Positions 1-6,000 of a DNA stretch of 23,820 nt are shown here, in pieces; position 1 is the stretch's first letter; every line of letters starts with the position of its first letter. The position numbers are program-made. Source of the DNA: a virus (Duplodnaviria; Heunggongvirae; Uroviricota; Caudoviricetes); IMG/VR virus record IMGVR_UViG_2534681938_000038. The stretch is one strand, 5' to 3'.

Positions 1-3000
1 ATGAACGACATCTCTTCTGACGACATCTTCCTGCTGAAACAGCGCCTGGCCGAACAGGAAGCGCTGATCCACGCCCTGCAGGAAAAGCTGAGCAACCGGG
101 AGCGCGAAATAGACCATCTGCAGGCGCAGCTGGATAAACTCCGCCGGATGAACTTCGGCAGTCGTTCCGAAAAAGTCTCCCGCCGTATCGCACAAATGGA
201 AGCCGATCTGAACCGGCTTCAGAAAGAGAGCGATACGCTGACTGGTAGGGTGTATGACCCGGCAGTACAGCGTCCGTTGCGTCAGACCCGCACCCGTAAG
301 CCGTTCCCTGAATCACTACCCCGTGACGAAAAGCGACTGTTGCCTGCGGCGCCGTGCTGCCCGAACTGCGGCGGTTCACTGAGCTATCTGGGCGAGGATA
401 CCGCCGAACAGCTGGAGTTGATGCGTAGCGCCTTCCGGGTTATCCGGACGGTACGGGAAAAACATGCCTGTACTCAGTGCGATGCCATCGTGCAGGCACC
501 TGCACCTTCGCGGCCCATCGAGCGGGGTATCGCCGGACCGGGGCTGCTGGCCCGCGTGCTGACCTCGAAGTATGCAGAGCACACCCCGCTGTATCGCCAG
601 TCAGAAATATACGGCCGGCAAGGTGTGGAGCTGAGGCGTTCACTGCTGTCGGGCTGGGTGGATGCATGCTGCCGGCTGCTGTCTCCGCTGGAAGAGGCGC
701 TTCATGGCTATGTCATGACTGACGGCAAACTCCATGCCGATGATACCCCGGTCCAGGTACTGCTGCCGGGTAATAAGAAGACGAAGACCGGGCGGTTGTG
801 GGCGTATGTTCGTGATGACCGCAATGCAGGGTCAGCGTTGGCACCTGCAGTGTGGTTCGCTTACAGCCCGGACAGAAAAGGCATCCATCCGCAGACTCAT
901 CTTGCCTGCTTCAGCGGTGTGCTGCAAGCGGATGCGTACGCCGGGTTCAACGAGCTGTATCGCAATGGTGGGATAACGGAAGCTGCCTGCTGGGCTCATG
1001 CCCGCCGAAAGATCCACGATGTGCACGTCCGCATCCCGTCAGCACTGACGGAAGAAGCCCTGGAGCAGATCGGTCAGTTGTACGCCATAGAGGCGGATAT
1101 AAGGGGAATGCCGGCAGAGCAGCGGCTTGCTGAACGTCAGCGAAAAACGAAACCGTTGTTGAAATCCCTGGAAAGCTGGTTGCGTGAAAAGATGAAGACC
1201 CTGTCGCGACACTCAGAGTTGGCGAAGGCGTTCGCGTACGCACTTAACCAGTGGCCGGCACTGACGTACTATGCGAACGATGGCTGGGTGGAAATCGACA
1301 ACAACATCGCTGAAAATGCCCTGCGGGCGGTCAGTCTGGGTCGTAAAAACTTCCTGTTCTTCGGCTCTGATCATGGTGGTGAGCGGGGAGCGCTACTGTA
1401 CAGCCTGATCGGGACGTGCAAACTGAATGACGTGGATCCAGAAAGCTACCTTCGCCATGTGCTTGGCGTCATAGCAGACTGGCCGGTCAACCGGGTCAGC
1501 GAACTGCTTCCGTGGCGCATAGCACTGCCAGCTGAATAACACATCCCCGTCAATACGGCCCTCGCTGTACGCTTACGAACAACCAGCAAACGGGCATTGT
1601 GTTCTGAAATCCAGGCTATTGATTCAACGTCAGCGACAGATCTGCGCTGTAAAAGAACTTGTAAAACAACGTAATAGAATTATCCGGAATGGTGGCGACT
1701 ATGCACTAGAACACCACAATTTCGCTCTCTCGGTAAGGCACTGTCACAGCATTCAACAGAATGTGACTTGCCAGATTTATTAGCACCACCAGATGTTTAA
1801 CCGGGTAACCACGACCCAGTCGGGGATATATTCCATCTTCTCGCTGACATCATCAAGAATAAAAAGGTTTATTACACTCAGAGCAACGTTCTTCAGCAGG
1901 CGGGATAATTCTTCAACATTTAGAAGATGTGTTATTAAAGGCATACAAACTGGACGTATTGTATTTTCTTTTGGTGGTTGACCTAAGGTAGCAGTTTATC
2001 CTGATGCGCTGAGATTTCTGTAATATCTACGTCAACATTCTCCTCGAATAGAAAATGCAGCCCCGGCAAGTAATTCACATTTTTTAACAAAACGTTGTTA
2101 GCGTGCCATTTTCAGAATCTCTCCAAGAAAGCGAATTCTTTTCTCAAATTCTGCATTCTCAGACACAGCTTTCTACTCCATGGTAATGGCCCAAATACGA
2201 AGTTGCTCAGGATCATTAGTGGTGCTTAGAAGTTAAATAACCATGCGGAGTACCACTCGTCATCACGTATTTATATATCATGAAGCTATTGTTGTGTTTT
2301 GTACATCAGTAGATATATTCTGATATACTCCTTTTGCTAGACATAACCTTTCACCTGCTTGCAAAGCTTCTGTGTTCTGACATTGCCAAATTGTTGCAAT
2401 TCTGTATCCAGCCTTCTTTCAGTCATAGCTTCGGGCCGCGATAAGACTCACTGATCTGACCCTGATTCCTCTTGCAGACTTTATAGACCAATTAAAATGC
2501 AGTTTCTGCAGGTCAACGTCTGACCATCATTGTCATCACTCTGGCCATTAGAGTAACCTTCTGCATTCATCCTTTTGTAAAAAGTTTATATTAGTATCAG
2601 CAATTAACCGGACCTGATACTGATATGAGTCTTACCGCATATACGGTCAATTTCAGCAATTAATTACATTATCCACGCCAAAGTATTTGTCATCACAATG
2701 ATGGTACCTTCTTTCAGACACCATTTTTTCAACTCCGTTTTCCACGGACCGCACTCTTATGTCAAGAGTGCGGTCCGTGGATACAACCAGAGACCGACTG
2801 ACACGAGTCAGAGGAAACGACGGATATGTTCAGTCGTAAAATATCTATCAAAAAACATGATTAAGGTCAAAAATGTTTGATATTTACAATTTATGAAGAT
2901 GACAATAATTATAGATATATGAGAACATAAATGAAAATAATTATCATTACAGCAATCATTTGTACTTTGTATTAATGAGGGATGAAATGTTATATAATAT

Positions 3001-6000
3001 ACCTTGTCGAATTTATATCCTTTCCACTCTGTCATTATGCATTTCTGGGATAGTTTCTACTGCAACCGCAACTTCTTCAGAAACAAAAATCAGCAACGAA
3101 GAGACGCTCGTCGTGACCACGAATCGTTCGGCAAGCAACCTTTGGGAAAGCCCGGCGACTATACAGGTTATTGACCAACAAACATTGCAGAACTCCACCA
3201 ATGCCTCCATAGCCGATAATTTGCAGGACATCCCCGGAGTAGAGATAACAGACAACTCCTTGGCAGGCCGTAAACAAATCCGCATTCGTGGCGAAGCATC
3301 CTCCCGTGTTTTAATTCTCATTGATGGTCAGGAGGTAACTTATCAGCGCGCCGGAGATAATTATGGTGTGGGACTGTTGATAGATGAGTCTGCGCTGGAG
3401 CGTGTTGAGGTAGTGAAAGGTCCATATTCCGTACTGTACGGTTCACAGGCAATTGGCGGTATTGTTAACTTCATCACCAAAAAGGGAGGTGACAAACTTG
3501 CATCTGGAGTTGTGAAAGCTGTTTATAATTCCGCAACAGCAGGCTGGGAAGAATCAATCGCGGTCCAGGGGAGCATCGGTGGATTTGATTATCGCATCAA
3601 CGGTAGTTATTCTGATCAGGGCAATCGTGATACGCCGGATGGACGTCTGCCGAATACCAACTATCGTAACAATAGTCAGGGTGTATGGTTGGGTTATAAC
3701 TCCGGAAACCATCGTTTTGGCCTCTCGCTTGATCGCTACAGACTCGCGACACAAACTTACTATGAGGATCCAGACGGAAGTTATGAGGCATTTAGTGTCA
3801 AAATACCTAAACTTGAACGAGAGAAAGTTGGGGTATTCTATGACACAGACGTGGACGGTGACTATCTAAAAAAAATTCATTTCGACGCGTATGAGCAGAC
3901 CATCCAGCGCCAATTTGCCAACGAAGTAAAAACGACACAGCCTGTTCCCAGTCCGATGATTCAGGCTCTGACCGTTCATAACAAGACTGACACCCATGAT
4001 AAGCAATACACTCAGGCGGTCACATTGCAGAGTCACTTTTCGCTGCCTGCTAATAATGAACTTGTTACCGGTGCACAGTACAAACAAGATAGGGTCAGCC
4101 AAAGGTCCGGTGGCATGACCTCAAGCAAATCTCTGACCGGCTTCATTAATAAGGAAACACGAACTCGCTCCTATTATGAGTCAGAGCAAAGTACAGTCTC
4201 ACTATTCGCACAAAATGACTGGCAATTCGCCGATCACTGGACATGGACAATGGGAGTTCGCCAATACTGGCTTTCTTCAAAGTTGACGCGTGGTGACGGA
4301 GTATCATATACCGCAGGCATTATAAGCGATACCTCTCTTGCCAGAGAGTCTGCGAGTGATCACGAAATGGTAACATCTACAAGCCTGCGCTATTCAGGTT
4401 TCGATAACCTGGAGTTACGCGCTGCGTTCGCGCAAGGCTACGTATTTCCCACACTCTCCCAGCTTTTTATGCAGACATCTGCGGGCGGCAGTGTCACATA
4501 CGGAAATCCTGATCTTAAGGCTGAACACTCCAATAACTTTGAATTAGGTGCACGATATAATGGTAATCAGTGGCTGATTGACAGCGCAGTTTACTACTCA
4601 GAAGCTAAAGATTATATTGCAAGTCTGATCTGTGATGGCAGTATAGTTTGCAATGGTAACACCAACTCCTCCCGTAGTAGCTACTATTATTATGACAATA
4701 TTGATCGGGCAAAAACATGGGGACTGGAAATAAGCGCGGAATATAATGGCTGGGTTTTCTCGCCATATATCAGTGGCAATTTAATTCGTCGGCAATATGA
4801 AACTTCAACATTAAAAACAACTAATACAGGTGAACCAGCGATAAACGGACGTATAGGGCTGAAACATACTCTTGTGATGGGTCAGGCCAACATAATCTCT
4901 GATGTTTTTATTCGTGCTGCCTCTAGTGCAAAAGATGACAGTAACGGTACCGAAACAAATGTTCCGGGCTGGGCCACTCTCAACTTTGCAGTAAATACAG
5001 AATTCGGTAACGAGGATCAGTACCGGATTAACCTGGCACTCAATAACCTGACAGACAAACGCTACCGTACAGCACATGAAACTATTCCTGCAGCAGGTTT
5101 TAATGCAGCTATAGGTTTTGTATGGAATTTCTGATGACAAAAACAATCGTTATGGAATTCTTTGTCCTGATCTGCCCGCTTTGCGGGCAGGCTAACGAAC
5201 GTATTGTGTTTGTTGAAGGTTTTTCGACGTTGTTTTCCATCTGTGGGTGAATATTTATTCTTCCCGCCAGCATGACTCTATACTCATTGCTACGACAATG
5301 ACTTATAAAGCTGGTTACTGAACCTATACCTTTGTAATTCAAAAGTGATATCAGTTCACAACGCAATACTATTTTTAGATTATTTACTCTCACCCAGATA
5401 CTGAATCAATGGATAATACCTTTTGATTTATCCCGACGCGGAAGAAGGTGGTGAACCGCCCCGGAAATCCTGGAGACTAAACTCCCTGAGAAAGAGGTAA
5501 ACAGGATGACTAAAAATACACGTTTTTCCCCCGAGGTCCGTCAACGGGCAGTTCGTATGGTTCTGGAAAGTCAGGGCGAATATGACTCACAATGGGCGGC
5601 AATTTGTTCCATTGCCCCAAAGATTGGCTGTACACCAGAGACTCTGCGTGTGTGGGTTCGTCAGCATGAGCGGGATACCGGGAGTGGTGATGGTGGACTC
5701 ACCACCGCTGAACGTCAGCGTCTGAAAGAGCTGGAACGTGAAAATCGTGAACTGCGCCGCAGTAACGATATCCTTCGCCAGGCTTCCGCTTATTTTGCGA
5801 AGGCGGAGTTCGACCGCCTCTGGAAAAAATGATGCCACTGCTGGATAAGCTGCGTGAGCAGTACGGGGTCGGACCGGTATGCAGCGAACTGCATATTGCC
5901 CCGTCAACGTATTACCATTGTCAGCAACAGCGACATCATCCGGATAAACGCAGTGCCCATGCGCAGCACGATGACTGGCTGAAGAAAGAGATACAGCGCG

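Follow-up and report, generated by a model that had tools for sequence, protein, structure and literature searches.

The window analysed here is the whole 23,820-nucleotide stretch of IMG/VR virus record IMGVR_UViG_2534681938_000038 (Caudoviricetes), and the segment of interest is its positions 1577 to 5451, which carry hma, the gene of a TonB-dependent haem receptor of Escherichia coli, between the insertion sequences (IS) ISEc8 and IS629. Mapping of the annotation of O157:H7 strain Sakai showed that the segment lies exactly between the end of ISEc8 at 1576 and IS629 at 5452-6761, and the limits given in the original prediction, which was made from the sequence alone, agreed with this to the base. 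The window is DNA of E. coli O157:H7. Its positions 1-6761 were 99.985% identical to Sakai, and over 1540-5505 the DNA identity was 100% with Sakai, with EDL933 and with numerous further O157 genomes, including 25 of the 25 top matches listed (O157:H7 or closely similar strains). The G+C content was 42.5% over 1577-5451 compared to 52.3% in the adjacent cobTSU. By part, it was 39.1% in 1577-2986, 45.3% in the receptor gene (41.9% at third codon positions) and 39.1% in 5135-5451, so that the description of the segment as strongly AT-rich held for the flanks while the gene was only moderately so. The segment is the left, cobU-proximal end of an E. coli genomic island, with hma as the first gene and the one intact gene. 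O157:H7 Sakai has this island as SpLE2, K-12 as CP4-44 and extraintestinal pathogenic E. coli (ExPEC) as PAI-cobU. cobU itself is outside the window, 273 bp before ISEc8 in Sakai, and the cobU-side position of hma was the same in Sakai, EDL933, FRIK2533, CFT073 and K-12. The features of the locus are as in Table 1.

Table 1. Features in and around the hma segment (window positions, open reading frame abbreviated as ORF, except for the Kluyvera operon, which is numbered on its own locus)
Feature	Position	Strand	Description
ISEc8 (IS66 family), right part	1-1576	+	Transposase ORF 1-1539; Pfam DDE_Tnp_IS66 E 2e-106; Sakai repeat_region
Right copy of ISEc8 8-bp target duplication, GAACAACC	1577-1584	.	
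Transposase scrap	1619-1807	-	PGAP 'IS4 family transposase' pseudogene (EDL933, CFT073 RefSeq); equals K-12 yeeH plus the start of yoeG
Decayed IS66-family TnpC, N-terminal ~150 codons	1801-2244	-	In-frame stops; equals K-12 pseudogene yoeG
Probable tnpB accessory-gene remnant	2281-2645	-	Same decayed element; DNA similarity reaches 2645
Perfect 18-bp inverted repeat, 5-nt loop	2741-2781	.	~200 bp 5' of hma; U/T tail lacking on both strands
hma promoter region, predicted overlapping Fur sites	2877-2951	+	19-mers start at 2895 (14/19), 2927 (14/19) and 2933 (15/19)
hma (yoeE / ECs_2792; K-12 yoeA)	2987-5134	+	ATG start; 715-aa TonB-dependent outer-membrane haem receptor
3' flank of conserved hma module	5135-5451	.	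Three-way alignment and junction strings
GC-rich stem-loop (CTGCCCGC TTT GCGGGCAG)	5172-5190	+	38 nt past hma stop; no T-run after
IS629 (IS1203 / IS3 family)	5452-6761	+	orfA 5506-5832, orfB 5829-6719; Pfam HTH_Tnp_1, rve; Sakai repeat_region
Second IS629/IS1203 copy	11273-12582	-	Inverted; interrupts prophage replicative helicase gene
Kluyvera hma-like haem operon	L010 4001-9466		Receptor first, then ChuT-like / ChuW-HutW / HutX / 207-aa ORF

The ATG-started ORF of hma was preceded by a GAGGG Shine-Dalgarno-like motif 7-11 nt 5' of the start codon, and its product showed the Pfam domains Plug (E 6.5e-24) and TonB_dep_Rec_b-barrel (E 1e-39). The layout read from the sequence consisted of a signal peptide ending at about ATA28, a TonB box (EETLVVT) at residues 38-44, a plug at about residues 63-168 that includes Tyr126, and then the beta-barrel with a C-terminal VWNF. 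The N-terminal plug, 22-strand barrel domain, TonB box and C-terminal aromatic residue that define TonB-dependent transporters were all found in the window receptor, and the complete 715-aa TonB-dependent receptor that had been predicted was thereby confirmed.

Comparison with the CFT073 protein WP_000966628.1 showed that 714 of 715 amino acids were identical, the sole change being Q413 in O157 and R413 in CFT073. The published hma primers for quantitative PCR of the Mobley laboratory (PMC2978726) matched the window with 0 mismatches at 3123-3144 (+) and 3264-3285 (-), and 0 of 100 shuffles matched in the control. In a review, the island PAI-CFT073-cobU ('Hma, Fbp system') is given as 2322324..2365760 (PMC7545054), and the first base of the CFT073 receptor coding sequence, 2322324, is this published start. 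Beside cobU, CFT073 showed a cob fragment, a transposase scrap and about 1.2 kb of non-coding DNA followed by the 715-aa receptor. The receptor for which no named match had been offered was identified as Hma by the near-identical CFT073 protein, the primers and the island start coordinate; hma is c2482, a haem receptor (PMC2736566; PMC12241658). In pathogenic E. coli, Hma is a second receptor for haem. Sakai has the gene annotated as yoeE (ECs_2792), a part of the phage-like element SpLE2, and the RefSeq and UniRef names for the product are the generic 'TonB-dependent receptor plug domain-containing protein'. Such automated annotation is of no help in naming the receptor to a reader with the sequence alone, and no useful literature was found under the names ECs2792 or yoeE. 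Among the receptors that had been suggested for comparison, IreA scored 102 bits against a cut-off of 1197 and ShuA aligned with residues 39-229 only, so that the receptor is neither IreA nor ChuA. Its identification as Hma means that it is not Iha or IutA either.

The best NCBIfam matches of the receptor were haem/haemoglobin receptor subfamilies, and the only full-length PDB match was the haem receptor PhuR. Siderophore equivalogs other than IreA were likewise far below their cut-offs (CirA 121 vs 745 bits; FepA family 93 vs 493 bits). Tyr126 was present in the window receptor and invariant in nine family members, and position 126 is presumed to be the Tyr required for haemin use in CFT073 Hma. 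Hma imports free haem (PMC12241658) and uses a surface-exposed Tyr, which is required, instead of the His pair of HemR/ChuA (PMC3832793).

Control of the gene by iron was supported by the promoter region. The best 19-bp match to the Fur consensus in all 23.8 kb was at 2933-2951 (GAAAATAATTATCATTACA), with 15 of 19 positions, 36 bp before the hma ATG, and with the two overlapping 14/19 matches it forms a group of three sites 36-92 bp before the ATG. Sigma-70-like hexamer pairs called by a promoter scan at 2877-2906, 2883-2912 and 2919-2947 overlapped the Fur sites. The number of such pairs in this AT-rich region was not above chance, so that the assignment of the promoter is itself an inference. 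Over the 207 bp before the ATG, 1 nt was changed relative to the yoeA promoter of K-12 and 4 nt relative to that of CFT073. The region upstream of yoeA was the top-ranked K-12 Fur cluster of Chen et al. (27.4 bits, 12 sites in 95 bp, position -48) and was gel-shifted by Fur (PMC2189734). In addition, yoeA has been assigned to a Fur iModulon, and in O157:H7 under bile salts yoeA mRNA increased 1.95-fold along with fhu, fep, feo and tonB-exbBD. The candidate Fur box of the original prediction therefore stood, as the best match in the whole window and by the near-identity of its surroundings to the Fur-bound K-12 promoter, and the sequence comparison supports Fur control of hma in O157.

An intact hma was found in 1361 of 5426 complete E. 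coli genomes (2114 when fragments are included), nearly always in single copy and on the chromosome, and 2112 of 2115 records with any part of hma were at least 99% identical. Between O157 (phylogroup E) and CFT073 (phylogroup B2), identity was 99.1% for the hma module, 99.63% for the gene and 97.7% for the adjoining ldtA-cobTSU. This lower divergence of the module than of the core, together with the identity of at least 99% among records, points to a recent spread by recombination. The proposed horizontal acquisition on an accessory island was upheld by the distribution, the low G+C, the excess of identity over the core and the membership of PAI-cobU/CP4-44/SpLE2, and hma did not turn out to be a core gene with ordinary context.

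The two IS are later than the gene. GAACAACC was found on both sides of ISEc8 in Sakai and as one copy in uninterrupted sequence in K-12 and CFT073, and neither O157 strain FRIK2533 nor CFT073 had the IS629 beside hma. The junction on the ISEc8 side occurred in 298 complete genomes and that on the hma side of IS629 in 185. The own duplication of ISEc8, the absence of IS629 from FRIK2533 and CFT073 and the unequal junction counts indicate that both IS are secondary insertions of the O157 lineage. The bracketing by IS, which had been taken as a sign of how the gene arrived, was therefore discarded as such evidence.

The 1.4 kb upstream of hma was without a convincing ORF, as had been predicted. 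The longest ORF in 1577-2986 was 62 aa, a Pfam scan of its six stop-masked frames gave nothing at E <= 1, and the sole Rfam match in 1400-5600 at E <= 1 was a chance one, of a miRNA family on the hairpin at 2741-2781. CFT073 and K-12 have the stretch with hardly a base changed, and with the hma ATG as offset for the coordinates it corresponded to the K-12 pseudogenes yeeH, yoeG and yoeH. The first 151 residues of a plasmid IS66 TnpC fragment aligned with 1801-2244 by tblastn at 47% identity (E 2e-27), the TnpB C-terminus gave a weak match at 2281-2340 (E 7e-4), and about 70% DNA identity was found to IS66-type regions on 346 enterobacterial plasmids. Judged by these similarities, the upstream 1.4 kb is for the most part a decayed IS66-family element distinct from ISEc8. 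The 'IS4 family' label of 1619-1807 may be imprecise, given the IS66 TnpC alignment at 1801-2244 and the IS66-type similarity up to 2645. The hairpin nearer to hma had a minimum free energy of -38.5 kcal/mol (z -7.7) and was identical in K-12 and CFT073. It was present once in each of 2754 genomes, a larger number than have hma, and had no meaningful Rfam family match.

Among the genera with full-length homologues of 66-79% amino acid identity were Kluyvera, Citrobacter, Raoultella, Buttiauxella, Providencia and Izhakiella. ORFs of 279-299, 447-448, 164-165 and 207 aa came after the homologue, in this order, in Kluyvera, Citrobacter and Providencia. Profile scans, which were made for the Kluyvera proteins only (Citrobacter and Providencia being matched by ORF sizes and order), identified a BtuF/IsdE-class periplasmic binding protein (ChuT-like), ChuW/HutW (571 bits, cut-off 400) and HutX (208 bits, cut-off 110). 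From these profiles, the Kluyvera-type arrangement is a chuT-chuW-chuX-chuY-type haem utilisation operon headed by the Hma homologue. Fur-like boxes (14-17/19) were present about 40-60 nt 5' of the ATG of the homologues. The Hma-like receptors of Kluyvera, Citrobacter, Raoultella, Providencia and related Enterobacterales share Y126, the Fur-like boxes and the full-length similarity with E. coli Hma, but whereas theirs head the operon of binding protein, ChuW/HutW, HutX and 207-aa protein, the E. coli copy is without these genes. Nucleotide similarity between E. coli hma and the homologues was confined to the coding region, and this, with the lack of any trace of the partner genes, makes E. coli hma an orphan receptor, whose partners either were lost or never accompanied it. 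Systems named for onward transport of haem are Chu and Dpp (PMC3832793).

A tentative history can be drawn from these observations, to which as a whole somewhat less than even odds are given. The E. coli receptor gene would have been cut from a hma-chuT-chuW-hutX-chuY operon of the Kluyvera/Citrobacter type, captured beside the now-dead IS66-family element and then spread recently, with about 99.6% identity from one phylogroup to another. Its role in O157:H7 would be that of a second entry for haem, supplying the unlinked inner-membrane systems Chu or Dpp, and the upstream hairpin would perhaps be a relic of the capture or a promoter insulator.

Among characterised systems, the closest is Hma (c2482) of CFT073, reportedly described by Hagan and Mobley in 2009 as a haem acquisition receptor of that strain. 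The CFT073 and O157 loci share the site beside cobU, the upstream 1.4 kb, the 317-bp downstream flank, Tyr126 and the Fur-type promoter. They differ at residue 413, at four promoter-proximal nucleotides (one of them in the main Fur box), in the presence of ISEc8 and IS629 in O157 only, and in the island downstream of hma, which has ibrBA-like and Fbp genes in CFT073 and SpLE2 genes in O157. K-12 yoeA, in the CP4-44 cryptic prophage, shares the locus, a near-identical promoter, the yeeH/yoeG/yoeH scraps and the hairpin with O157. However, it is a pseudogene, with an IS2 inserted after 306 bp and a truncation after about 500 bp, and the K-12 locus has an IS5 where the O157 sequence is continuous and is without ISEc8 and IS629. 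ChuA/ShuA of enterohaemorrhagic E. coli (EHEC), uropathogenic E. coli (UPEC) and Shigella are, like Hma, TonB-dependent and Fur-regulated haem importers present in the same strains, and the plugs can be aligned (PDB 3fhh, E 1.6e-17), but the similarity is limited to the N-terminal region stated above. ChuA belongs to the chu operon and has the His pair, whereas E. coli hma stands alone and its product has the Tyr and, according to the literature, takes free haem only.

Overall, the receptor of the segment is read as Hma, the Fur-repressed haem uptake gene product of the cobU-side island, with the flanking IS inserted later, and a probability of about 0.93 is given to this reading as a whole. 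Several points weigh against it. The score for the NCBIfam haem/haemoglobin subfamily TIGR01785 was 229.2 bits, below the cut-off of 316.85, even though this was the best-scoring family; this is consistent with Hma as an atypical haem receptor without the conserved His pair. No remnants of chuT, chuW, hutX or chuY were found near hma by tblastn in the window, Sakai, FRIK2533 or CFT073, and with no transport partners beside it the function of E. coli hma would depend on unlinked transporters. In the main Fur box CFT073 has T at 2935, where O157 and K-12 have A, and the A lowers their consensus match by one. Haem affinity, TonB dependence and the role of Tyr126 in Hma are taken from secondary sources and would apply to O157 by extension, and within the literature that could be searched no experiment with the hma allele of O157 was found. 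This allele (R413Q relative to CFT073) presumably works like CFT073 Hma.

The receptor would have a different role if it imported a cargo other than haem, such as a siderophore, if it served only as a target of colicins or phages, or if it were an Iha-like adhesin. Its plug does resemble CirA, FepA and BtuB in PDB and NCBIfam matches and its score falls under the curated haem-subfamily cut-off, but the alignment with these proteins is limited to an N-terminal region of about 140-190 residues with the plug, and PhuR alone matches at full length. With the siderophore equivalogs so far below their cut-offs, a demonstrated haem importer only one residue away and homologues that occupy chuT/chuW/hutX haem operons, such a role is highly improbable, and of the predicted iron-uptake or adhesin cargo only the iron-uptake part, as haem receptor, was retained. 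Very unlikely too is that O157:H7 hma is a silent or decaying relic like K-12 yoeA, kept by hitch-hiking. About 750 genomes carry only a truncated hma, including the IS2-split K-12 copy, in one O157 genome (H41) the gene is interrupted by IS1203, the locus is a degraded island with many IS and the well-studied haem receptor of EHEC is ChuA. However, the ORF in the window is intact and one amino acid from the functional CFT073 allele, the 25 listed top matches are all 100% identical in DNA, the Fur promoter is intact, and the transcript has been detected in O157:H7 and is induced alongside other iron genes.

The segment is exactly bracketed by two IS, which is what would be seen if ISEc8 and IS629 had together brought the receptor as a composite transposon. 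A composite transposon has the same IS twice and one shared target duplication, but here the families differ (IS66 and IS3) and ISEc8 has its own 8-bp duplication in a sequence that K-12 and CFT073 have uninterrupted. In addition, CFT073 and K-12 have the module beside cobU without either IS, O157 strain FRIK2533 is without the IS629, and the counts of genomes with the two junctions are unequal. A composite transposon is accordingly next to impossible, and hma as a gene of the cobU-side island with later IS insertions is preferred.

In the mechanism proposed for this Hma reading, gene identity, intactness, near-identity of the promoter to a Fur-bound sequence, distribution and the haem-operon context of the relatives come from the present analysis, and haem uptake, the Tyr126 requirement and the virulence role from the literature. 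When iron is plentiful, Fur-Fe2+ would fill the overlapping sites over the -35/-10 region (2895-2951) and repress hma. When iron is low, the gene would be transcribed and the protein exported to fold as a plug in a barrel. Hma would then bind haemin at the surface, with Tyr126 required as in the CFT073 protein, and pass it into the periplasm with energy from TonB-ExbBD through its TonB box, so that free haem would serve as an iron source. Onward transport would have to use systems encoded elsewhere, either ChuT-ChuUV, which is present in O157, or Dpp. The dead IS66-family element upstream was inherited together with hma, and ISEc8 and IS629 were inserted later in the O157 lineage.

Downstream of the gene, homology between CFT073 and O157 stopped at about 5449-5451, the insertion point of IS629, which points to an edge of the module or a site prone to recombination. 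The GC-rich stem-loop at 5172-5190 was not called by the terminator scan, and may be the end of the hma transcript.

At the right end of IS629 (6761/6762) the window departs from Sakai and EDL933 and enters an ORF6N antirepressor gene 115 bp inside its 3' end. The rest of the island found in PAI-cobU, CP4-44 and SpLE2 is missing here, although the window shares their cobU-proximal end with hma first, and a lambdoid prophage abuts IS629 instead. The ORF6N gene belongs to a lambdoid prophage integrated at sbcB, which has stx2 beside Q in MB41-1. The distance from hma to that prophage point is about 50 kb in FRIK2533, where it is taken up by the remaining part of SpLE2, tmaR-yeeA-sbmC-dacD, nleG7 and the tail, head, lysis and Q regions of the prophage. 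The IS629/prophage junction of the window was found in 0 of 5426 complete genomes and showed no target duplication. The simplest reading is a one-ended deletion adjacent to IS629, and an assembly join through the IS629 repeat is the alternative. Homologous recombination between two IS629 copies is unlikely, with the hma-side copy being of the Sakai type throughout; the IS copy in the MB41-1 prophage is of a 4%-divergent type and 115 bp from the window breakpoint. The second IS629 copy of the window was 95.9% identical to the one beside hma and identical to IS copies in FRIK2533 and MB41-1. The ORF6N antirepressor has 225 aa in the window compared to 251-254 aa in other strains, partly through the 3' truncation by IS629, and three tandem 30-bp repeat units were observed in its gene at 7087-7206 (protein repeat SQNLRVTLSN).

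The feature is already known, being a characterised hma in a known island, and is real but ordinary. Hma of UPEC is an outer-membrane protein that is induced in urine and in vivo, helps to colonise the kidney and is protective as a vaccine antigen. hma is a textbook fitness factor and vaccine antigen of ExPEC, and little follows from the present locus for discovery. In the literature covered, no discussion of the gene for EHEC was found; EHEC O157:H7 has an intact hma with a Fur-type promoter alongside chuA.

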